Positions 1 to 11,629 of a stretch of 11,629 bases of DNA are shown here, one piece after another. The stretch lies in IMG/VR virus record IMGVR_UViG_2700989507_000026; one strand, given 5' to 3'. This DNA is from a virus (lineage: Duplodnaviria; Heunggongvirae; Uroviricota; Caudoviricetes). How positions within the stretch are numbered: position 1 is the first letter of the stretch; each line of letters starts with the position of its first letter. The notes under the pieces are model-generated. The model was not told the origin of the DNA, searched no databases, and saw nothing but the letters and a program-made list of their open reading frames with translations. The position numbers and the translations under genes were made by a program.

Positions 1-72
1 GCCCTGACTTTCCAGAACCATACGGACTGCCCGTTGACGGACTTCAGGGGAAAAACGAGTATTTTTAGTCAT
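1..72 (-). CDS. IS3-family transposase OrfA, N-terminal 24 codons only (runs off the window)
   Basis: Minus-strand ATG at 72-70 preceded by AGGTAAACAGG; translation MTKNTRFSPEVRQRAVRMVLESQG matches the IS629 OrfA N-terminus as I remember it. Confidence 0.7.
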   Translation of the reverse strand, partial: MTKNTRFSPEVRQRAVRMVLESQG

Positions 73-126
73 CCTGTTTACCTCTTTCTCAGGAAGTTTA
101 GTCTCCAGGATTCCCGGGGCGGTTCA
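1..126 (-). mobile_element. Left end of an IS3-family insertion sequence (IS629/IS1203-like), truncated by the window edge; terminal inverted repeat ends at 126
   Basis: Reverse complement of 57-126 reads TGAACCGCCCCGGGAATCCTGGAGACTAAAC...AGGTAAACAGGATGACTAAAAATAC, which I recognise as the IS629 left end and start of orfA; lambda O homology stops abruptly at this point. Confidence 0.75.
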
Positions 127-631
127 GGTCAGAGGATTCGCCAGAATTCTCTGACGAATAATCTTTTCTATTTTCTTTTGTATTAGTGTCTTTTGTGTTC
201 CCCTGTTTTGAGGGATAGCAATCCCCCAATTTGAGGGATGTTTTATCCCTCGTTTTAGGGGATTTTCCCTCGTTTTGAGGGATACACCATTCTGAGATGT
301 TTTTATTTGGTCCAAACATGCCGCCTTGCTGCTTGATAATATTCATTCTGACGAGTTCTAACTTGGCTTCATTGCACCGTTTGACAGGTAACTTTGTAAT
401 CTCGCTAAGTTGAGAATCGGTGATTCTGTCCATTGGTTTATTCCACCCATAGGTTTTACGCAGAATGGCAAGCAGCACTTTAAACTGTCGCTTGGTCAGA
501 TCTGCGCCTGAATAAGCCTCAAGCAGCATATTTGATAGTCTGGCGTAACCATCATCGAGATCTGCCACATTACGCTCCTGTCCGGCAAAGTTACCTCTGC
601 CGAAGTTGAGTATTTTTGCTGTATTTGTCAT
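98..631 (-). CDS. O: Replication initiator O, C-terminally truncated by the IS insertion (about 168 native codons fused to 9 IS-derived codons LNRPGNPGD)
   Basis: N-terminus MTNTAKILNFGRGNFAGQERNVADLDDGYARL... is lambda O; ori iterons lie inside the ORF; reading frame runs into the IS inverted repeat and stops at 98; lambda O is about 299 aa. Confidence 0.85.
   Translation of the reverse strand: MTNTAKILNFGRGNFAGQERNVADLDDGYARLSNMLLEAYSGADLTKRQFKVLLAILRKTYGWNKPMDRITDSQLSEITKLPVKRCNEAKLELVRMNIIKQQGGMFGPNKNISEWCIPQNEGKSPKTRDKTSLKLGDCYPSKQGNTKDTNTKENRKDYSSENSGESSDLNRPGNPGD
199..284. repeat. ori-lambda iterons: four direct repeats of about 18-19 bp (O-binding sites), followed at 130-198 by the AT-rich unwinding region
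   Basis: Four copies of the tCCCTCnnnTTGAGGGAt-type motif at about 199-216, 221-239, 245-263 and 267-284, inside the O coding region. Confidence 0.9.
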
Positions 632-641
632 AATGACTCCT

Positions 642-717
642 GTTGATAGTTCCAGTAATAACCTCAGAATTCCATCTGGATTTGTTCAGAACGCTCGGTT
701 GCCGCCGGGCGTTTTTT
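642..717 (+). ncRNA. oop: oop-like antisense RNA overlapping the 3' end of cII, ending at an intrinsic terminator
   Basis: GC-rich hairpin CGGTTGCCGCCGGGCG followed by TTTTTTATT at 698-720 on the + strand, antisense to the cII 3' end; candidate -10 CATAAT near 629-634. 5' end is approximate. Confidence 0.55.
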
Positions 718-957
718 ATTGGTGAGAATCGAAGCAACTTGTCGTGCCAATCGAGCCATGTCGTCGTCGACGACACCCCATTCAAGAACAGCAAGCAGCA
801 TTGAGAACTTTGGAATCCAATCCCTCTTCCACCTGCTGATCTGCGACTTATCAACTCCCACAGCTTCCGCTGTCTTCTCAGTTCCAAGCATTGCGATTTT
901 GTTAAGCAACGCACTCTCGATTCGTAGAGCCTCGTTGCGTTTGTTTGCACGAACCAT
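664..957 (-). CDS. cII: Transcriptional activator CII (97 aa)
   Basis: Translation from internal Met MVRANKRNEALRIESALLNKIAMLGTEKTAEAVGVDKSQISRWKRDWIPKFSMLLAVLEWGVVDDDMARLARQVASILTNKKRPAATERSEQIQMEF matches lambda CII; the longer ORF in the track (to 1017) is an upstream in-frame extension. Confidence 0.93.
   Translation of the reverse strand: MVRANKRNEALRIESALLNKIAMLGTEKTAEAVGVDKSQISRWKRDWIPKFSMLLAVLEWGVVDDDMARLARQVASILTNKKRPAATERSEQIQMEF
935..948 (+). promoter_or_regulatory. CII-binding site of pRE (TTGC-N6-TTGC) overlapping the cII start; pRE fires in the + direction toward cI
   Basis: TTGCgtttgtTTGC at 935-948 on the + strand, the classical CII recognition repeat. Confidence 0.8.
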
Positions 958-1036
958 ATGTAAGTATTTCCTTAGATAACAATTGATTGAATGTATGCAA
1001 ATAAATGCATACACCATAGGTGTGGTTTATTTTGAT

Positions 1037-1068
1037 GCCCTTTTTCAGGGCTGGGATGTGTAAGAGCG
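1037..1068 (-). promoter_or_regulatory. nutR (boxA CGCTCTTA and boxB GCCCTGAAAAAGGGC hairpin) between cro and cII
   Basis: Reverse complement of 1037-1068 gives CGCTCTTACACATCCCAGCCCTGAAAAAGGGC. Confidence 0.85.
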
Positions 1069-1076
1069 GGAATGTC

Positions 1077-2429
<1,353 letters not shown>

Positions 2430-2479
2430 TCCCCACCTCAATCTCGATAACAAAAAAACAAACTATTTTCCGTTTAAAA

Positions 2480-2553
2480 ACAATGGAGTTTGTTTTTCAC
2501 GTCCCTTTTTTACAATATTTCTTGTTTACAACATACAATCTTCCTTGTAATTT
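2480..2553 (+). promoter_or_regulatory. Left operator OL3-OL2-OL1 (434 type) with PL firing in the + direction
   Basis: ACAATGGAGTTTGT (2480-2493), ACAATATTTCTTGT (2512-2525), ACAATCTTCCTTGT (2535-2548); candidate -35 TTTACA at 2525-2530; the -10 is uncertain. Confidence 0.8.
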
Positions 2554-2594
2554 TAAGCCATCAGCAGGACGCACTGACCACCATTGAAGGTGAG

Positions 2595-2624
2595 GCTCTT
2601 AAAAATTAAGCCCTGAAGAAGGGC
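2595..2624 (+). promoter_or_regulatory. nutL (boxA-like GCTCTTA and boxB GCCCTGAAGAAGGGC)
   Basis: GGCTCTTAAAAATTAAGCCCTGAAGAAGGGC; boxB is canonical for lambda nutL, boxA has one mismatch to CGCTCTTA. Confidence 0.85.
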
Positions 2625-2781
2625 AGCATTCAAAGCAGAAGGCTTTGGTGTGTGTGATACGAAACGAAGCATTGGCCGGAAGTGCGAATCCGGATTAGCT
2701 GCCAATGTGCCATTGCGGGGTGTTTTCGTTCAGGACTACGACTCCCACACACAACCAAAGCTAACTGACAGGAGAATCCAG

Positions 2782-3105
2782 ATGGATGCACAAACACGCC
2801 GCCGCGAACGTCGCGCAGAGAAACAGGCTCAATGGAAAGCAGCAAATCCCCTGTTGGTTGGGGTAAGCGCTAAACCAGTTAACCGCCCTATTCTCTCGCT
2901 GAATCGCAAACCGAAATCACGAGTAGAAAGCGCACTGAATCCGATAGACCTTACGGTGCTGGCTGAATACCACGAACAGATTGAAAGCAACCTGCAACGT
3001 ATTGAGCGCAAGAATCATCGAGTTTGGTATAGCAAGCCAGGTGAGTTCGGTATAACTTGTCAAGGAAGACAAAAGGTTAAAGGGGAATCCATTCCATTGG
3101 CATGA
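2782..3105 (+). CDS. N: Antitermination protein N (107 aa), lambda-like with several substitutions
   Basis: MDAQTRRRERRAEKQAQWKAANPLLVGVSAKPVNRPILSLNRKPKSRVESALNPIDLTVLAEYH...; RBS GGAGA at 2771-2775; track ORF 2650-3105 is an upstream extension through nutL. Confidence 0.92.
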   Translation: MDAQTRRRERRAEKQAQWKAANPLLVGVSAKPVNRPILSLNRKPKSRVESALNPIDLTVLAEYHEQIESNLQRIERKNHRVWYSKPGEFGITCQGRQKVKGESIPLA

Positions 3106-3113
3106 GGTACGTA

Positions 3114-3983
3114 ATGAAGAAGATTGATTACAAGTCCATACCAAAACCAATAGACTCAGCATCAGAGCGAAAAAAACACAAAAAAGAGGCTGAAAAATTA
3201 GCAAATTATATCAGTTTTATTAGAAACAATGCTCACGGCGATGGCGACAAGAAGTTGCTTTCAGATGCTCGGACCCAAGCGTTCGGTATACTTCGTAAGC
3301 AGATGCAATATCGTCTTCATCCTGGCTACATAATTGAAATTCGCCCTACTGAAAGACAATTGTTCTTATTAAACTCTGTCTTTGACTTTGTAAACGTAGT
3401 TGGAGATCTTATCGACAGGTCTGTAGATAAGGATCCTGATACAAATAGTTTTCTTCTAACAAATAAAGAATACTTATATGGTAAATTCGGTATAAACGGA
3501 TGGCAAAAATATGTACGCTTCTTACGTGCATTCGTTGATGCGTATAAAAATTCCGACATGATTTATACATATTTGCCTGGTGGTGATAATTGTACGCTTT
3601 CGGCAGACAATAGAATATTCATACCTGTACTTGGTCTTGGGCTGATTAATGCAGTAAATGAAAAAGATGTTATAATTGTTAAGCAGTGGCGAAAATATGA
3701 GGGATATAGATATCTGCCATGCTTTGATATATTAAAAATACAGAATAAATTCTATGTAAAAATTAAATATAAAGAAGATATTTTCTTCCTCAGAAAAAAC
3801 AAAGATCTTTTACAAGAACTTTCTGGTACAATAGATGTCATCTTAGGTTCTAGGTTTATAAAAGAACTGAAAGAAAGCAGGTCTTTCTCTCGTGTAGAGA
3901 TAAGCGAGTCAGAGTTATGGGGTATATCAAATAATCCTGTAAACCACGCTCACCAACGAAACCCAAACAAAAAGTGGTCATAA
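3114..3983 (+). CDS. Hypothetical protein (289 aa), AT-rich accessory gene in the N-ea10 interval where lambda carries ral/orf28/sieB; candidate exclusion or abortive-infection function
   Basis: Long ORF with SD GAGG 5 nt upstream of ATG 3114 (alternative ATG at 3102 overlaps the N stop); clearly lower GC than neighbours; no recognisable family or catalytic motif. Confidence 0.65.
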   Translation: MKKIDYKSIPKPIDSASERKKHKKEAEKLANYISFIRNNAHGDGDKKLLSDARTQAFGILRKQMQYRLHPGYIIEIRPTERQLFLLNSVFDFVNVVGDLIDRSVDKDPDTNSFLLTNKEYLYGKFGINGWQKYVRFLRAFVDAYKNSDMIYTYLPGGDNCTLSADNRIFIPVLGLGLINAVNEKDVIIVKQWRKYEGYRYLPCFDILKIQNKFYVKIKYKEDIFFLRKNKDLLQELSGTIDVILGSRFIKELKESRSFSRVEISESELWGISNNPVNHAHQRNPNKKWS

Positions 3984-4125
3984 CCCGCTCAGGCGGATTT
4001 CATTTTCACGCAAACAACAGAATAAACACAGCGCTGTGTATTCATTCCAACGAGTGAATACACGGAGCAATGTCGCTCGTAACTAAACAGGAGCCGACTT
4101 GTTCTGATTATTGGAAATCTTCTTT

Positions 4126-4151
4126 GCCCTCCAAGATGAGGGCGATTTTTT
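4126..4151 (+). terminator. Intrinsic terminator upstream of ea10 (tL-type, would be overridden by N antitermination)
   Basis: GCCCTC-caagat-GAGGGC hairpin followed by GATTTTTTAT. Confidence 0.6.
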
Positions 4152-4171
4152 ATCTGTGAGGATATGAACAG

Positions 4172-4540
4172 ATGTCAAACATCAAAAAATACATCATTGA
4201 TTACGACTGGAAAGCATCAATAGAAATTGAAATCGACCATGACGTAATGACAGAGGAAAAACTTCACCAGATTAATAATTTCTGGTCAGACTCTGAATAC
4301 CGACTCAATAAACACGGCTCTGTATTAAATGCTGTATTAATCATGCTGGCGCAACATGCTCTGCTTATAGCAATTTCAAGCGACTTAAATGCATATGGTG
4401 TTGTGTGTGAGTTCGACTGGAATGATGGAAATGGTCAGGAAGGATGGCCTCCAATGGATGGTAGTGAAGGAATAAGAATTACCGATATCGATACATCAGA
4501 AATATTTGATTCAGATGATATGACTATCAAGGCCGCCTGA
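4172..4540 (+). CDS. ea10: Ea10 (lambda Ssb-like early protein, 122 aa)
   Basis: MSNIKKYIIDYDWKASIEIEIDHDVMTEEKLHQINNFWSDSEYRLNKHGSVLNAVLIMLAQHALL... matches lambda Ea10. Confidence 0.9.
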   Translation: MSNIKKYIIDYDWKASIEIEIDHDVMTEEKLHQINNFWSDSEYRLNKHGSVLNAVLIMLAQHALLIAISSDLNAYGVVCEFDWNDGNGQEGWPPMDGSEGIRITDIDTSEIFDSDDMTIKAA

Positions 4541-4612
4541 GCGCGGCGTTACCGCATACCAATTACGCTTCACTCGAGGCGTTTTTCGTTATGTATAAAT
4601 AAGGAGCACACC

Positions 4613-4777
4613 ATGCAATATGCCATTGCAGGGTGGCCTGTTGCTGGCTGCCCTTCCGAATCTTTACTTGAACGAATCACCCGTAAATTACGTGACGGAT
4701 GGAAACGCCTTATCGACATACTTAATCAGCCAGGAGTCCCAAAAAATGGATCAAACAATTATGGCTATCCAGACTAA
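4613..4777 (+). CDS. cIII: CIII (54 aa; FtsH inhibitor that stabilises CII)
   Basis: [54 protein letters not shown]; RBS AAGGAG at 4601-4606; below the ORF-track length cutoff, found by hand. Confidence 0.92.
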   Translation: MQYAIAGWPVAGCPSESLLERITRKLRDGWKRLIDILNQPGVPKNGSNNYGYPD

Positions 4778-4889
4778 ATTCACTATCGCCACTTTTATTG
4801 GCGATGAAAAGATGTTTCGTGAGGCCGTCGACGCTTATAAAAAATGGATATTAATACTGAAACTGAGATCAAGCAAAAGCATTCACTAA
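4746..4889 (+). CDS. kil: Kil (47 aa; host cell-division inhibitor)
   Basis: [47 protein letters not shown] matches lambda Kil; start overlaps the cIII 3' end. Confidence 0.9.
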
Positions 4890-5259
4890 CCCCCTTTCCT
4901 GTTTTCCTAATCAGCCCGGCATTTCGCGGGCGATATTTTCACAGCTATTTCAGGAGTTCGGCCATGAACGCTTATTACATTCAGGATCGTCTTGAGGCTC
5001 AGAGCTGGGCGCGTCACTACCAGCAGATAGCCCGTGAAGAGAAAGAGGCAGAACTGGCAGACGACATGGAAAAAGGCCTGCCCCACACCTGTTTGAATCG
5101 CTATGCATCGGTCATTTGCAACGCCACGGGGCCAGCAAAAAAGCCATTACCCGTGCGTTTGATGACGATGTTGAGTTTCAGGAGCGCATGGCAGAACACA
5201 TCCGGTACATGGTTGAAACCATTGCTCACCATCAGGTTGATATTGATTCAGAGGTATAA
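4844..5259 (+). pseudogene. gam: gam (RecBCD inhibitor) with a single-base frameshift near 5085; the canonical C-terminus is in the +1 frame
   Basis: Frame 1 gives [80 protein letters not shown] then diverges and runs through the bet start; the +1 frame from about 5086 reads [57 protein letters not shown] and ends at 5259, six nt before bet. Confidence 0.8.
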
Positions 5260-5264
5260 AACGG

Positions 5265-6050
5265 ATGAGTACAGCACTCGCAACGCTGGCAGGGAAGCTG
5301 GCTGAACGTGTCGGCATGGATTCTGTCGACCCACAGGAACTGATCACCACTCTTCGCCAGACGGCATTTAAAGGCGATGCCAGCGATGCGCAGTTCATCG
5401 CATTGTTGATCGTCGCCAACCAGTACGGCCTTAATCCGTGGACGAAAGAAATTTACGCCTTCCCTGATAAGCAGAACGGCATCGTTCCGGTGGTGGGCGT
5501 TGATGGCTGGTCCCGCATCATCAATGAAAACCAGCAGTTTGATGGCATGGACTTTGAGCAGGACAATGAATCCTGTACATGCCGGATTTACCGCAAGGAC
5601 CGTAATCATCCGATCTGCGTTACCGAATGGATGGATGAATGCCGCCGCGAACCATTCAAAACCCGCGAAGGCAGAGAAATCACGGGGCCGTGGCAGTCGC
5701 ATCCTAAACGGATGTTACGGCATAAAGCCATGATTCAGTGTGCCCGTCTGGCCTTCGGATTTGCTGGTATCTATGACAAGGATGAAGCCGAGCGCATTGT
5801 CGAAAATACTGCATACACTGCAGAACGCCAGCCGGAACGCGACATCACTCCGGTTAACGATGAAACCATGCAGGAGATTAACACTCTGCTAATCGCCCTG
5901 GATAAAACATGGGATGACGACTTATTGCCGCTCTGTTCCCAGATATTTCGCCGCGACATTCGCGCATCGTCAGAACTGACACAGGCCGAAGCAGTGAAAG
6001 CTCTTGGATTCCTGAAACAGAAAGCCACTGAGCAGAAGGTGGCAGCATGA
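5265..6050 (+). CDS. bet: Bet (Red-beta single-strand annealing recombinase, 261 aa)
   Basis: [68 protein letters not shown]... matches lambda Bet. Confidence 0.95.
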
Positions 6051-6727
6051 CACCGGACATTATCCTGCAGCGTACCGGGATCGACGTGAGAGCTGTCGAA
6101 CAGGGGGATGATGCATGGCACAAATTACGGCTCGGCGTCATCACCGCTTCAGAAGTTCACAACGTGATAGCAAAGCCCCGCTCAGGAAAGAAGTGGCCTG
6201 ACATGAAAATGTCCTACTTCCACACCCTGCTGGCTGAGGTTTGCACCGGTGTGGCTCCGGAAGTTAATGCTAAGGCGCTGGCCTGGGGAAAACAGTACGA
6301 GAACGACGCCAGAACCCTGTTTGAATTCACTTCCGGCGTGAATGTTACTGAATCCCCGATCATCTATCGCGACGAAAGTATGCGCACCGCCTGCTCTCCC
6401 GATGGTTTATGCAGTGACGGCAACGGCCTTGAGCTGAAATGCCCGTTTACCTCCCGGGATTTCATGAAGTTCAGGCTCGGTGGTTTCGAGGCCATAAAGT
6501 CGGCTTACATGGCCCAGGTGCAGTACAGCATGTGGGTGACGCGAAAAGATGCCTGGTACTTTGCCAACTATGACCCGCGTATGAAGCGTGAAGGCCTGCA
6601 TTATGTCGTGGTTGAGCGGGATGAAAAGTACATGGCGGGTTTTGACGAGATGGTGCCGGAGTTCATCGAAAAAATGGACGAGGCACTGGCTGAAATTGGT
6701 TTTGTATTTGGGGAGCAATGGCGATGA
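6047..6727 (+). CDS. exo: Exo (Red-alpha 5'-3' exonuclease, 226 aa)
   Basis: [68 protein letters not shown]... matches lambda Exo; start overlaps the bet stop. Confidence 0.95.
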
Positions 6728-6906
6728 AGCATCCTCACGATAATATCCGCGTAGGCACGATCACTTTCGTCTACTCCGTTACGAAGCGAGGCTGGGTATT
6801 TCCCGGCCTTTCTGTTATCCGAAATCCGCTGAAAGCCCAGCGGCTGGCTGAGGAGATAAATAATAAACGGGAGGCGATATGCACAAAGCATCTCCTGTTG
6901 AGTTAA
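6718..6906 (+). CDS. Lambda orf60a-like small protein (62 aa)
   Basis: [62 protein letters not shown]; immediately after exo as in lambda. Confidence 0.75.
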
Positions 6907-7070
6907 GAACGAGTATTGAGATGGCACATAGCCTTGCTCAAATTGGAGTCAGGTTTGTGCCAATACCAGTAGAAACAGACGAAGAATTTCATACGTTAGC
7001 CACATCCCTTTCGCAAAAGCTGGAAATGATGGTGGCGAAAGCAGAAGCAGATGAGAGAGACCTGGTATGA
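6879..7070 (+). CDS. Lambda orf63-like small protein (63 aa)
   Basis: [63 protein letters not shown]; overlaps the orf60a end as in lambda. Confidence 0.75.
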   Translation: MHKASPVELRTSIEMAHSLAQIGVRFVPIPVETDEEFHTLATSLSQKLEMMVAKAEADERDLV

Positions 7071-7150
7071 CAACCACTGAATGCATTTTTCTGGCAGCGG
7101 GCTTCATATTCTGTGTGCTTATGCTTGCCGACATGGGACTTGTTCAATGA
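7067..7150 (+). CDS. Small hydrophobic peptide (27 aa), possible single-pass membrane peptide
   Basis: ATGA overlap with the preceding stop; MTTTECIFLAAGFIFCVLMLADMGLVQ; its stop overlaps the next ATG (ATGA), suggesting a translationally coupled chain. Confidence 0.4.
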   Translation: MTTTECIFLAAGFIFCVLMLADMGLVQ

Positions 7151-7362
7151 CACCTCAGCAAGAAAACGCCCTTCGCAGTATTGCCCGTCAGGCTAATTCT
7201 GAAATCAAAAAAGCCAGACAGCAGTTTCCGGATAAAAACGTCGATGACATTTGCCGTAGCGTACTGAAGAAGCACCGCGAAACGGTAACGCTGATGGGAT
7301 TCACACCGACTCATTTAAGCCTGGCGATCGGCATGTTAAACGGCGTCTTTAAGGAACGGTGA
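7147..7362 (+). CDS. Hypothetical small protein (71 aa), early-left-operon gene of unknown function
   Basis: MTPQQENALRSIARQANSEIKKARQQFPDKNVDDICRSVLKKHRETVTLMGFTPTHLSLAIGMLNGVFKER; good coding texture, start coupled to the upstream peptide. Confidence 0.6.
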   Translation: MTPQQENALRSIARQANSEIKKARQQFPDKNVDDICRSVLKKHRETVTLMGFTPTHLSLAIGMLNGVFKER

Positions 7363-7382
7363 GCATGAAAAGCAAAATCATC

Positions 7383-7406
7383 AGGGAGCTACAGGCTCCT
7401 TTTTTA
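7383..7406 (+). terminator. Intrinsic terminator (tL-type)
   Basis: AGGGAGC-tacag-GCTCC hairpin followed by TTTTTT at 7400-7405. Confidence 0.6.
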
Positions 7407-7460
7407 TTGTTCGCATTCACCCTCAAGCGTATTAACCAACAATTCAGGGATTAATGGAAG

Positions 7461-7682
7461 ATGGCAGACATCATTGATTCAGCATCAGAAATTGAAGAAT
7501 TACAGCGCAACACAGCAATAAAAATGCGCCGCCTGAACCACCAGGCTATATCTGCCACTCATTGTTGTGAGTGTGGCGATCCCATAGATGAGCGAAGACG
7601 CCTGGCCGTTCAGGGTTGTCGGACTTGTGCAAGTTGCCAGGAGGATCTGGAACTTATCAGTAAACAGAGAGGTTCGAAGTGA
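7461..7682 (+). CDS. TraR/DksA-family C4 zinc-finger protein (73 aa), probable RNA-polymerase secondary-channel binder
   Basis: CxxC-N16-CxxC arrangement (CCECGDPIDERRRLAVQGCRTCASCQ) resembling F-plasmid TraR (CEACGNPIPEARRK...CVECQ). Confidence 0.8.
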   Translation: MADIIDSASEIEELQRNTAIKMRRLNHQAISATHCCECGDPIDERRRLAVQGCRTCASCQEDLELISKQRGSK

Positions 7683-7834
7683 GCGAAATTAACTAGAAGC
7701 CAAAGATAAAATCATCGCTGAGCAGGAGAAAATCGCTAACGGAGAAAAGACAGTAAGTCAGTATATGAAAACCGCATGATATCATCAGATAAAAATCGAT
7801 CGTAAAGCGAAATATTAATACCAGAATAAACGAG

Positions 7835-7858
7835 TCGAGGTAAATTATATTACCTCGA
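7835..7858 (-). terminator. Probable terminator for the minus-strand membrane-protein gene
   Basis: Perfect 9-bp inverted repeat TCGAGGTAA-attata-TTACCTCGA 35 nt beyond the stop at 7893; on the minus strand it is followed by CTCGTTTATT. Confidence 0.45.
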
Positions 7859-7892
7859 TAAATTAACTAAAACTTGCCCGCTATATACTATC

Positions 7893-8495
7893 TCATTCAG
7901 TATCATCACGCGCGGTCTGTGCATATGTTACTACCGCACCTAATGTATTAATTTTCTTTTCAACATAGATAATATTATCGTACTCATAATTGCCATACGG
8001 ATAGCAAATGCGAATATTCTCATGTAGATCGGGGTCATCCACCTCAGCTCCAGAACAACTTTTTGAACTACCGGAAGTATACCGATACGGTGCAACATAA
8101 GACGATGTCTCTCCAGGCAAAAAATAAGTTAGTGTTGTAAGGGGTATAATCAGAAAAAATCCAGCAAATATGCACATCCCTGCATAAACCTTAAGGTATG
8201 CTGACAGACTCTTCCAGCCGCTTTGTTTTACTATCCCCTTCTTAACCCAAAACAGAGATAACAGAAAAGCTATTCCCATGCTAAACAGAATGTAATAGTG
8301 GGATATACTCTGATTAAGAAACGTGACCCTGTAAATATCTGCCCGCCACCAGAAGAAAAGGAAAATAAAGATCAGGCCTGAAACTGTCATGCAAATCAAA
8401 TAAGGATACGAATCTTTTTTCATGTTTAGCGCCCATAAAATTTTTCCTGCCCCGGACAAATTTACCATCCATTTTTTGCGCAGAAAATAGCTCAT
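7893..8495 (-). CDS. Hypothetical integral membrane protein (up to 200 aa; about 3 predicted TM helices plus a roughly 75-aa Cys-containing C-terminal domain), AT-rich, transcribed against the PL operon
   Basis: Hydrophobic segments YLICMTVSGLIFIFLFFWW, YYILFSMGIAFLLSLFWV, AGMCIFAGFFLIIPLTTLTYFL; only sizeable minus-strand ORF in the early-left region; start is ambiguous (Met codons at 8495, 8468, 8423); no family recognised. Confidence 0.6.
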   Translation of the reverse strand: MSYFLRKKWMVNLSGAGKILWALNMKKDSYPYLICMTVSGLIFIFLFFWWRADIYRVTFLNQSISHYYILFSMGIAFLLSLFWVKKGIVKQSGWKSLSAYLKVYAGMCIFAGFFLIIPLTTLTYFLPGETSSYVAPYRYTSGSSKSCSGAEVDDPDLHENIRICYPYGNYEYDNIIYVEKKINTLGAVVTYAQTARDDTE

Positions 8496-8667
8496 TACTT
8501 ACTGCACAATAATACACAAAATTGCGTAAATTTTTTGCATGGATTTTAGCTCTTTCAGCCGACGTTTAAGGGGTAAATAGCATTTCCTAAAAGCAACTGC
8601 ACCAACCCAACAGAATGAGCTACCGCTTACGTTGAGAGCAAAAAAGTGTATAGCAGCAATGAACAGC

Positions 8668-8696
8668 ATCCTCGCACTGACGAGGATTTCTTTTAT
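8668..8696 (+). terminator. Intrinsic terminator on the + strand between the membrane-protein gene and the 55-aa ORF
   Basis: ATCCTCG-cactga-CGAGGAT hairpin followed by TTCTTTTAT. Confidence 0.55.
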
Positions 8697-8737
8697 CTGA
8701 ACTCGCTACGGCGGGTTTTGTTTTATGGAGATGATAA

Positions 8738-8905
8738 ATGCACTTCCGAGTCACAGGTGAATGGAATGGAGAACCATTCAACAGAGTTATCGAAGCAGAG
8801 AACATCAATGACTGCTATGACCACTGGATGATATGGGCGCAGATAGCACATGCAGACATAACCAATATTCGAATTGAAGAACTGAAAGAACACCAAGCCG
8901 CCTGA
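8738..8905 (+). CDS. Small hypothetical protein (55 aa) immediately upstream of xis
   Basis: RBS GGAG at 8727-8730; MHFRVTGEWNGEPFNRVIEAENINDCYDHWMIWAQIAHADITNIRIEELKEHQAA; stop lies in the loop of the next terminator. Confidence 0.55.
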   Translation: MHFRVTGEWNGEPFNRVIEAENINDCYDHWMIWAQIAHADITNIRIEELKEHQAA

Positions 8906-8920
8906 TGGCGGCTTTTTCTT
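8895..8920 (+). terminator. Intrinsic terminator just upstream of pI/xis
   Basis: AAGCCGCC-tgat-GGCGGCTT hairpin followed by TTTCTT. Confidence 0.7.
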
Positions 8921-8932
8921 GCGTGTAATTGC
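8919..8932 (+). promoter_or_regulatory. CII-binding site of the pI promoter (TTGC-N6-TTGC), which would give CII-dependent int expression
   Basis: TTGCgtgtaaTTGC immediately upstream of the xis ATG, as in lambda pI. Confidence 0.8.
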
Positions 8933-8944
8933 GGAGACTTTGCG

Positions 8945-9163
8945 ATGTACTTGACACTTCAGGAGTGGAACGCACGCCAGCGACGCCCAAGAAGCCTTGA
9001 AACAGTTCGTCGATGGGTGCGCGAATGCAGGATATTCCCTCCTCCGGTTAAGGATGGAAGAGAGTATCTGTTCCACGAATCAGCGGTAAAGGTTGACTTA
9101 AATCGACCAGTAACAGGTAGCCTTTTGAAGAGGATCAGAAATGGGAAGAAGGCGAAGTCATGA
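8945..9163 (+). CDS. xis: Excisionase Xis (72 aa)
   Basis: MYLTLQEWNARQRRPRSLETVRRWVRECRIFPPPVKDGREYLFHESAVKVDLNRPVTGSLLKRIRNGKKAKS matches lambda Xis. Confidence 0.95.
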   Translation: MYLTLQEWNARQRRPRSLETVRRWVRECRIFPPPVKDGREYLFHESAVKVDLNRPVTGSLLKRIRNGKKAKS

Positions 9164-10211
9164 GCGCCGGGATTTACCCCCTAACCTTTATATAAGAAAC
9201 AATGGATATTACTGCTACAGGGACCCAAGGACGGGTAAAGAGTTTGGTTTAGGCCGAGACAGGAGGATAGCAATCACTGAAGCAATACAGGCCAATATTG
9301 AGTTATTTTCAGGACACAAACACAAGCCTCTGACAGCGAGAATCAACAGTGATAATTCTGTTACGTTACATTCATGGCTTGATCGCTACGAAAAAATCCT
9401 CGCCAGCAGAGGAATCAAGCAGAAGACACTCATAAATTACATGAGCAAAATTAAAGCAATAAGGAGGGGGCTGCCTGATGCTCCACTTGAAGACATCACC
9501 ACAAAAGAAATTGCGGCAATGCTCAATGGATACATAGACGAGGGCAAGGCGGCGTCAGCCAAGTTAATCAGATCAACACTGAGCGATGCATTCCGAGAGG
9601 CAATAGCTGAAGGCCATATAACAACAAACCCGGTCGCTGCCACTCGCGCAGCAAAATCAGAGGTAAGGAGATCAAGACTTACGGCTGACGAATACCTGAA
9701 AATTTATCAAGCAGCAGAATCATCACCATGTTGGCTCAGACTTGCAATGGAACTGGCTGTTGTTACCGGGCAGCGAGTTGGTGATTTATGCGAAATGAAG
9801 TGGTCTGATATCGTAGATGGATATCTTTATGTCGAACAAAGCAAAACAGGCGTAAAAATTGCCATCCCTACAACATTGCATGTTGATGCTCTCGGGATAT
9901 CAATGAAGGAAACACTTGATAAATGCAAAGAGATTCTTGGCGGAGAAACCATAATTGCATCTACTCGTCGTGAACCGCTTTCATCCGGCACAGTATCAAG
10001 GTATTTTATGCGCGCACGAAAAGCATCAGGTCTTTCCTTCGAAGGGGATCCGCCTACCTTTCACGAGTTGCGCAGTTTGTCTGCAAGACTCTATGAGAAG
10101 CAGATAAGCGATAAGTTTGCTCAACATCTTCTCGGGCATAAGTCGGACACCATGGCATCACAGTATCGTGATGACAGAGGCAGGGAGTGGGACAAAATTG
10201 AAATCAAATAA
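9141..10211 (+). CDS. int: Integrase Int (356 aa, tyrosine recombinase)
   Basis: MGRRRSHERRDLPPNLYIRNNGYYCYRDPRTGKEFGLGRDRRIAITEAIQANIELFSGH... matches lambda Int, including the C-terminal catalytic Tyr region (ASQYRDDRG); overlaps the xis 3' end as in lambda. Confidence 0.96.
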   Translation: MGRRRSHERRDLPPNLYIRNNGYYCYRDPRTGKEFGLGRDRRIAITEAIQANIELFSGHKHKPLTARINSDNSVTLHSWLDRYEKILASRGIKQKTLINYMSKIKAIRRGLPDAPLEDITTKEIAAMLNGYIDEGKAASAKLIRSTLSDAFREAIAEGHITTNPVAATRAAKSEVRRSRLTADEYLKIYQAAESSPCWLRLAMELAVVTGQRVGDLCEMKWSDIVDGYLYVEQSKTGVKIAIPTTLHVDALGISMKETLDKCKEILGGETIIASTRREPLSSGTVSRYFMRARKASGLSFEGDPPTFHELRSLSARLYEKQISDKFAQHLLGHKSDTMASQYRDDRGREWDKIEIK

Positions 10212-10299
10212 TGATTTTATTTTGACTGATAGTGACCTGTTCGTTGCAACAAATTGATAAGCAATGCTTTTTTATAATGCCAACTTAGTATAAAAAAGC
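10212..10299. other. attL: phage P' arm (Int arm-type and IHF sites) plus the 15-bp common core at 10285-10299, joined to bacterial attB sequence
   Basis: Reverse complement of the lambda P' arm (CAATTTGTTGCAACGAACAGGTCACTATCAGTCAAAATAAAATCATTATT) followed by core TTAGTATAAAAAAGC (reverse complement of GCTTTTTTATACTAA) and then AGG..., matching the bacterial arm of attB. Confidence 0.9.
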
Positions 10300-10345
10300 A
10301 GGCTTCAACGGATTCATTTTTCTATTTCATAGCCCGGAGCAACCT

Positions 10346-11629
10346 GTGAACACATTTTCAGTTTCCCGTCTGGCGCTGGCATTGGCTTTTGGCGTGACGC
10401 TGACCGCCTGTAGCTCAACACCACCCGATCAACGTCCTTCTGATCAAACTGCGCCTGGTACCTCTTCTCGCCCGATTCTGTCGGCAAAAGAAGCGCAGAA
10501 TTTCGATGCGCAACACTATTTTGCATCCCTGACACCAGGTGCTGCAGCGTGGAATCCGTCCCCGATAACCCTGCCTGCGCAACCTGACTTTGTTGTCGGC
10601 CCGGCGGGTACTCAAGGTGTAACGCATACCACGATTCAGGCGGCGGTAGATGCGGCAATTATCAAGCGTACCAACAAGCGCCAGTATATTGCCGTGATGC
10701 CTGGTGAGTATCAGGGAACGGTGTATGTCCCTGCTGCTCCAGGTGGAATTACTCTGTACGGTACAGGTGAAAAACCGATTGATGTGAAGATTGGGCTTTC
10801 CCTTGATGGGGGCATGAGCCCTGCCGACTGGCGTCACGACGTCAACCCGCGCGGCAAATATATGCCAGGTAAACCAGCGTGGTATATGTACGATAGCTGC
10901 CAGAGCAAACGCAGCGACAGTATCGGTGTTCTCTGTTCTGCGGTCTTCTGGTCACAAAACAATGGCCTGCAACTGCAAAATCTGACCATCGAAAACACGC
11001 TGGGCGATAGCGTAGATGCAGGTAACCATCCGGCGGTGGCACTGCGTACTGACGGTGACCAGGTACAGATTAACAACGTTAACATTCTCGGTCGTCAGAA
11101 CACCTTCTTTGTCACCAACAGCGGTGTGCAGAACCGTCTGGAAACGAATCGTCAGCCGCGTACGCTGGTGACCAACAGCTACATTGAAGGGGATGTGGAT
11201 ATCGTTTCTGGTCGCGGCGCAGTGGTGTTCGATAACACCGAATTCCGCGTGGTGAACTCACGTACTCAGCAAGAAGCGTATGTGTTTGCACCGGCTACGC
11301 TGTCCAACATTTACTACGGTTTCCTCGCCGTAAACAGCCGTTTCAATGCTTCCGGTGATGGCGTGGCACAAATGGGCCGCTCGCTGGATGTTGATGCCAA
11401 TACCAACGGTCAGGTGGTGATCCGTGATAGCGCCATCAACGAAGGTTTTAACACGGCTAAACCATGGGCCGATGCGGTGATCTCTAATCGTCCGTTTGCG
11501 GGTAATACCGGCAGCGTTGACGATAGCGACGAAATACAGCGCAATCTGAATGACACTAACTACAACCGCATGTGGGAATACAATAACCGCGGCGTGGGTA
11601 GCAAAGTGGTTGCAGAGGCGAAGAAGTAA
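10346..11629 (+). CDS. ybhC: Host outer-membrane lipoprotein YbhC (pectinesterase-family fold, 427 aa), the chromosomal gene flanking attB
   Basis: MNTFSVSRLALALAFGVTLTACSS (lipoprotein signal with lipobox LTAC), complete ORF ending at the window edge; known to neighbour the lambda attachment site in E. coli. Confidence 0.9.
   Translation: MNTFSVSRLALALAFGVTLTACSSTPPDQRPSDQTAPGTSSRPILSAKEAQNFDAQHYFASLTPGAAAWNPSPITLPAQPDFVVGPAGTQGVTHTTIQAAVDAAIIKRTNKRQYIAVMPGEYQGTVYVPAAPGGITLYGTGEKPIDVKIGLSLDGGMSPADWRHDVNPRGKYMPGKPAWYMYDSCQSKRSDSIGVLCSAVFWSQNNGLQLQNLTIENTLGDSVDAGNHPAVALRTDGDQVQINNVNILGRQNTFFVTNSGVQNRLETNRQPRTLVTNSYIEGDVDIVSGRGAVVFDNTEFRVVNSRTQQEAYVFAPATLSNIYYGFLAVNSRFNASGDGVAQMGRSLDVDANTNGQVVIRDSAINEGFNTAKPWADAVISNRPFAGNTGSVDDSDEIQRNLNDTNYNRMWEYNNRGVGSKVVAEAKK

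Follow-up and report, generated by a model that had tools for sequence, protein, structure and literature searches.

An IS629 end joined to gene O beside ori-lambda in a ybhC-site prophage that has probably lost replication from its own products

Can a lambda-type prophage still replicate when an insertion sequence cuts its initiator gene short just where the origin of replication ends? The question is posed by a stretch of DNA of 11,629 nucleotides (the window), which represents the left arm and early region of a lambdoid prophage, ordered from the replication genes to the attachment site. On its minus strand lie a truncated gene O (98-631), cII (664-957) and a cro-like gene (1077-1292), and on its plus strand a gene for a LexA-type repressor (1396-2028) is followed by N, cIII, kil, gam, bet, exo, xis and int. 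A sequence-only reading of the first 631 positions had proposed that an IS element interrupts O and that the prophage could excise but should not replicate. We consider it highly probable that IS629 has entered gene O of a lambda-type prophage at the ybhC site, and that this event kept the origin, truncated the initiator and cost the prophage the start of replication from its own products.

The junction between IS629 and gene O

The first 126 nucleotides of the window are the IRL (transposase-proximal) end of IS629, which lies on the minus strand and consists of the terminal inverted repeat, the leader and the start of orfA. This segment matches one end of the 1310-bp IS carried by E. coli O145:H28 RM12761 (L003:12001-12126) at 100% identity, and the RM12761 element is in turn 100% identical to copies annotated as 'IS3 family IS629' in Stx-phage records, LC567824.1 among them. 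The supposed insertion sequence is therefore a genuine one, namely IS629 (100% identity over 126 nt). Its terminal inverted repeat (TGAACCGCCCCGGG...) is present, with window positions 102-126 forming the exact IRL of the 1310-bp element, and closes exactly at position 126, where it ends in ...CCCGGGGCGGTTCA (TGAACCGCCCCGGGAATCCTGGAGAC when read on the minus strand). The first 24 codons of orfA (MTKNTRFSPEVRQRAVRMVLESQG..., 1-72, minus strand), read from the sequence, match the annotated start of the IS3-family transposase in the RM12761 locus. The orfA start codon is at position 72, and the transposase gene is co-directional with O and hence downstream of pR. The reference copy of IS629 in RM12761 is full-length (1310 bp), with an orfA/orfB transposase that involves a programmed −1 frameshift.

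Gene O follows directly. Its native, lambda-type codons 1-168 occupy positions 127-631 on the minus strand and correspond to lambda nt 38686-39190 (505 nt, or 168 codons plus 1 nt), such that the IS joins O after codon 168, i.e. after lambda nt 39190; the earlier placement of the O/IS boundary at position 126, with about 168 native codons remaining, turned out to be exact. Residues 1-168 are the same as those of lambda O at 165 of 168 positions (98%) in a gap-free alignment. The truncated reading frame, O′ (98-631, minus strand), encodes 177 amino acids, in which the 168 native residues are followed by nine IS-encoded ones (LNRPGNPGD) and a stop codon. The Phage_rep_O domain (Pfam PF04492) is whole (residues 22-115, E=2.2e-36, full profile coverage). 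The C-terminal part of O (residues about 169-299) is not contiguous with the N-terminal domain, the frame leaving O at codon 168. The C-terminal part had been described as gone; it is indeed severed from the N-terminal part, but its physical absence is a separate matter, since whatever adjoins the IS on its left lies beyond the window. A sequence search for a solved structure of O found none.

The candidate target-site duplication copy is the 3-bp sequence GGT at positions 127-129 (ACC on the O strand). IS629 is known to generate target-site duplications of 3-4 bp, and matching duplications flank only 21 of its 47 copies in O157 genomes, 62% of the IS629 copies in these genomes being located within prophages (PMC3271280). 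IS629 outnumbers every other IS in O145:H28 as well as in other EHEC (PMC3893438).

Megablast of window positions 1-700 against 5426 complete E. coli genomes shows what the site looks like when it is unoccupied. Positions 127-700 are uninterrupted in 1176 records, which confirms the proposed insertion into O, and the best-matching genomes are 100% identical to this segment, which in them belongs to a 'replication protein' gene of full length (299 codons), with P and ren downstream of it. The window's own O/IS629 junction was found in none of the 5426 complete E. coli genomes (RefSeq) searched. The exact 177-aa junction protein, on the other hand, is encoded on eight contigs from three independent sources (NCBI, Logan and ENA), namely the NCBI draft GCA_002459035.1, the Logan assembly SRR33609521 and an ENA metagenome; two of the three are 100% identical to the window, and the third has a different immunity region. 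As it is found in three independent draft or metagenome assemblies, the junction is real and no assembly artefact. A literature search on the accession of the draft assembly returned no match.

In the ENA metagenome HOLS23-1 (L006, scaffold_3011, 3758-4774), an identical O′/IS629 junction is accompanied by another repressor (231 aa) and another cro. This sequence differs from the window by 8 mismatches per 1017 bp, one of which is within the IS, and its O starts with GTG instead of ATG. The allele has been spread by recombination, or else IS629 has entered this site on two occasions.

The origin, the early region and the integration module

By definition, ori-lambda comprises nt 39034-39160, and binding of its iterons by O is required (Hayes et al., PMC3349717). 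In the window, the iterons, the A+T-rich tract and the palindrome align to ori-lambda with no gaps and four mismatches. Mapping of the lambda annotation through this gap-free alignment places iterons ITN1, ITN2, ITN3 and ITN4 at positions 266-283, 246-263, 222-239 and 199-216, respectively. The four iterons (direct-repeat family D1, about 198-284) and the palindrome (inverted repeat I4, with 12-nt arms that are 92% complementary) were independently recovered by a repeat finder. The A+T-rich unwinding tract, with boundaries taken from PMC3349717, spans positions about 157-198 (lambda about 39119-39160) with two mismatches and no gaps, and the 28-bp palindrome at the right edge of the ori region (128-155, lambda 39162-39189), which contains an EcoRI site, is identical to that of lambda. 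The IS begins 30 bp past the functional origin and 2 bp past the palindrome. The description of the site as the edge of ori-lambda is thus accurate, the junction falling after nt 39190 and the origin, which ends at nt 39160, being untouched. The iteron-binding N-terminal domain and the iterons had both been expected to survive, and they do: the PF04492 domain is complete and all four iterons align to those of lambda.

The elements that would drive transcription across this origin are also in place. A promoter scan finds a pR-like promoter at positions 1320-1348 on the minus strand, which would transcribe cro, cII, O′ and ori before entering IS629. The cro-like gene (1077-1292, minus strand) encodes a 71-aa Cro-like protein. 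The cII gene (664-957, minus strand), located upstream of O in the pR operon, encodes a 97-aa protein that matches Pfam Phage_CII, and it is annotated as such in relatives with identical DNA. The divergent gene at 1396-2028 (plus strand) encodes a CI-type repressor of 210 amino acids with an HTH motif and an S24 peptidase domain; it is LexA-like and therefore SOS-cleavable. A further promoter scan hit on the plus strand (606-634) resembles pO, and the oop antisense RNA, mapped from lambda 38675-38599, would occupy positions about 642-718 of the same strand, where the terminator scan places a terminator at 688-715. Among Rfam families, only Lambda_thermo, the cIII thermoregulator, passes its gathering score within the window (4600-4658, plus strand, 88.5 bits).

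At the other end of the window, the integration module matches that of lambda. The xis gene (8945-9163, plus strand) and the int gene (9141-10211, plus strand) are both full length, and their products share 71 of 72 residues with lambda Xis and 353 of 356 residues with lambda Int, which upholds the view that the two genes are intact. The attL core GCTTTTTTATACTAA (10285-10299, minus strand) is exact, with one match found and none expected by chance. It is adjoined by the chromosomal gene ybhC (10346-11629), at what is the classical attB site of lambda. RM12761, the closest complete relative, has the attR core as well.

O is not the only damaged gene. In gam (about 4964-5305, plus strand), a 1-bp deletion relative to lambda at window position 5085/5086 changes CCCCAGCAC to CCCCACAC; the shifted ORF overruns the start of bet, and RefSeq flags gam as frameshifted in RM12761, too. 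This is a second inactivating lesion in the prophage.

The RM12761 version of the prophage extends over about 43 kb from ybhC to ybhB (L003:1-12000, L032:1-21800). It keeps P, ren, the nin genes, Q and the lysis and head genes; most tail genes are absent from it, and its cargo includes three genes for type III effectors (nleH, cif and espJ). A gene resembling lpxR and a nanS-p-type esterase gene are found in it as well.

What lies beyond the insertion sequence

A simple insertion predicts that the far end of the IS reads ...CTGGCTGGT/TGAACCGCCCC or ...TTTTCTGGCTGGT/TGAACCGCCCCGGGTTTCC, and that O codons 169-299 and P come next. Leftward extension by lookup of the exact 177-aa protein gave no contig (0 of 8) that reaches past the IS. 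Viral contigs scanned for exact patterns contained neither the junction nor its predicted far counterpart with the ACC duplication, and a degenerate pattern that covered the right, the predicted far and the RM12761-type far junctions found none in species-representative genomes or JGI metagenomes. All contigs that bear the window's junction terminate inside the IS, which is how short-read assemblies are expected to break at a repeat present in many copies. The start of the window within the IS is likewise consistent with the end of a short-read contig at a repeat boundary, which would account for the failed extension in the available assemblies. We also considered the 123/124-aa ORFs in the protein collection that correspond to the C-terminal part of O as possible IS-flanked remnants, but the contigs retrieved for them carry an O split by small indels in the ori region, with no IS beside the fragments, and thus have no bearing on the window's allele.

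Such splits form a class of their own. In the lambdoid loci L008-L027, where O lies at about 3440-4375 of each locus, this gene is often called as two ORFs with no intervening IS, an N-terminal one of 122-207 aa and a C-terminal one with a constant size of 123/124 aa. The recurrence of a split O in unrelated prophages would imply, from these sequences, that small indels or changes in iteron number are frequent inside the ori region; part of the splits could be sequencing errors.

The nearest relatives show what IS629 can leave behind in this gene. The ybhC-ybhB prophage of RM12761 and RM13516 is 99.98% identical to window positions 402-11629. In RM12761, however, IS629 abuts O nt 231, and all that its far side retains of O is a terminal piece of about 61 nt, behind which P, ren and the nin genes are intact; the loss amounts to 608 bp of O and takes in the entire ori, and the IS is not flanked by a duplication. 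The RM12761-type junction at O nt 231 is common to O157:H7, O80:H26 and other strains, for which reason the RM12761 allele need not descend from that of the window. Its derivation from the window's allele by one adjacent deletion was dropped as unsupported, the same junction being a simple insertion in O157:H7. The IS629/O allele with the junction at nt 231 seems to move between prophages. In O157:H7 F6294, the O nt 231 junction (L034:3501-3757, compared with L003:12100-12356 of RM12761) belongs to a simple insertion in a prophage that adjoins tRNA-Thr.

Other genomes display different far sides. Beyond the IS629/O junction, FY26 has a ninX remnant, FDAARGOS_1301 has Q, and FDAARGOS_293 has a recombinase remnant, while the O103:H2 strain FWSEC0007 contains a simple insertion that has O sequence to its left and right and is bordered by a 3-bp GTC duplication. 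The IS629-family junction of FWSEC0007 (L031:1315-2640), with its GTC duplication, is at the boundary between iteron 4 and the A+T-rich tract. Two other IS629-family junctions near ori, at L030:2626 (FDAARGOS_1301) and L001:6123 (FY26), lie 12 bp from the iteron-4/A+T-rich boundary and 47 bp beyond the window's site, respectively. Four independent IS629 junctions thus fall within about 120 bp around ori. The bent and easily unwound ori region may be a preferred IS629 target. Our procedure for finding junctions is biased toward this part of O, favoring positions at or beyond about O nt 440, and we therefore do not claim an IS629 hotspot at ori.

These observations bear on how the window's junction came about. 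It may be the edge of an IS629-mediated deletion or rearrangement that removed or relocated the C-terminal part of O, and possibly P and more, and that left no duplication; we give this reading an even chance. In most of the IS629/O junctions that we inspected in complete genomes, the IS is followed by DNA other than O or by no more than a stub of this gene, and RM12761, with 99.98% identity to the window over 11.2 kb, retains ~61 nt of O and has no duplication. The finding that only 21 of 47 IS629 copies in O157 have matching duplications (PMC3271280) points the same way. However, simple insertions with O on both sides exist (FWSEC0007 and F6294), and the RM12761 junction is located elsewhere in the gene (O nt 231), at a position common to O157 strains, and need not derive from the window's allele. 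Taking both sides together, we regard a simple insertion and an IS-associated deletion as about equally likely origins of the window's allele.

Replication status of the prophage and its known counterparts

The function of lambda O is split: its N-terminal part binds ori and its C-terminal part contacts P. Classical hybrid-phage and fragment work on this division is reportedly due to Furth and Yates (1978), Zahn and Blattner (1985) and Wickner and Zahn (1986). The N-terminal and C-terminal parts of O, when translated apart from one another, are not known to complement each other. At the start of replication, iteron-bound O recruits P-DnaB in a process that needs transcription from pR (PMC5043065, PMC3349717, PMC7466680), and the assembly is staged, an ori-O complex preceding the ori-O-P-DnaB complex (PMC5043065).

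By analogy with this established lambda biology, SOS induction of the window's prophage would lead to cleavage of the repressor and to transcription of cro, cII and O′ from pR, through ori and into orfA of IS629. Since ori binding needs no more than the N-terminal part of O, the 177-aa O′ could still attach to the iterons. As O′ lacks the part that contacts P, P-DnaB would not be brought to the origin, and no theta replication would ensue from the prophage's own products, the loss of which function we consider likely. Excision would still be possible, Int, Xis and attL being intact, provided that the prophage has an attR like the one found in RM12761. With an intact ori and activating transcription, the element would nonetheless constitute a replicon that another prophage in the cell could drive in trans if its O had the same specificity. 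The statement that the prophage could excise but not replicate is thus likely to be correct for the prophage on its own, in view of the truncated O, but does not extend to trans-complementation or regional replication, which the intact ori and pR would permit. We have softened the term 'replication-defective' because both pR and ori are intact in cis, and find the earlier interpretation reasonable, though over-confident, and supported in part.

How often such help would be at hand is a separate question. The prophage would not be replication-dead if its origin were fired by an O of the same iteron specificity from another lambda-type prophage, or if the region were replicated from a neighboring prophage, a situation that we regard as possible, though on balance unlikely. 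The origin, pR and the path of transcription through ori are intact, and a lambda-type O N-terminus is encoded in 1364 of 5426 complete E. coli genomes (about a quarter), with up to four copies in each; RM12761 has two. Moreover, defective O157 prophages have been found to be complemented or regionally replicated (PMC2669165). Such firing nevertheless depends on the other prophages of the source genome and on the supply of P from downstream of the IS, and the second copy in RM12761 is a match to the O N-terminus only, which speaks neither to the integrity of that gene nor to its iteron match.

Alternatively, the retained module of pR, cro, cII/oop, the O′ N-terminal domain and ori might interfere with lambda-type replicons. 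After induction, O′, which could bind iterons yet would fail to recruit P, would sit on the iterons of lambda-type phages already resident in the cell or newly entering it, Stx phages with related origins among them. A plasmid-borne lambda fragment, nt 38357-39172, excludes phages that replicate by the lambda mode (rep-lambda; PMC3349717), and by analogy the oop-plus-iteron segment of the window would match this excluding fragment. We rate such interference as very improbable. The reason is that ordinary lambda lysogens, to our knowledge, all carry the same sequences in single copy and show no such effect.

Less probable still, to the point of deserving hardly any credence, is that the IS/O junction is an assembly chimera at a repeat boundary that exists in no genome, for although the IS segment of 126 nt would equal k−1 for an assembler run with k=127 at a repeat-bounded contig end and the junction is absent from all complete genomes searched, the identical junction protein occurs on eight contigs obtained from three independent sources and pipelines, and the junction of HOLS23-1 sits in a different immunity-region background.

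The preferred reading, in which IS629 truncates the initiator and spares the origin, characterizes the ybhC prophage as one that cannot initiate replication by itself and bears on prophage mobility in a Shiga-toxin-type E. coli lineage. Its importance is mainly one of annotation. The prophage of the closest complete relative is a carrier of type III effector genes. As the complete origin and its activating promoter are kept, amplification with a matching O from another prophage may be possible for this allele, unlike for the ori-deleted allele of RM12761.

The window can finally be compared with five known systems. It resembles phage lambda (NC_001416, O/ori nt 38686-39585) in O residues 1-168, ori, cII, oop, Int, Xis and the attachment core, and differs from it in that O ends at codon 168 with nine foreign codons added, gam is frameshifted and the immunity region, with its 210-aa repressor and 71-aa Cro-like protein, is not that of lambda. 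The IS629 insertions into EHEC prophages (O157 Sakai and EDL933, O145:H28; PMC3271280, PMC3893438) involve the same element and the same habit of entering prophage genes, but the window's junction, after lambda nt 39190, is known from draft and metagenome contigs only and from none of the 5426 complete E. coli genomes. The prophage of RM12761 and RM13516 shares the integration site and the orientation of IS629 inside O with the window, whereas the window's allele keeps the ori that the RM12761 allele has lost entirely. In FWSEC0007 (O103:H2), an IS oriented as in the window interrupts the ori region of a lambda-type O, but is inserted about 70 bp earlier, at the boundary of iteron 4 and the A+T-rich tract, where it splits ori, and both halves of O are seen. 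The defective prophages of O157 Sakai (PMC2669165) are likewise lambdoid and have lesions in essential functions, and several of them are nevertheless excised, amplified or packaged with help; the likeness of the window to this pool is one of analogy, its element being known from sequence alone. Against this background, IS629 in a lambda-type O is a known kind of lesion and an ordinary route of decay for prophages in pathogenic E. coli, and the sole new detail is the exact point of insertion, which is already present in public draft assemblies.
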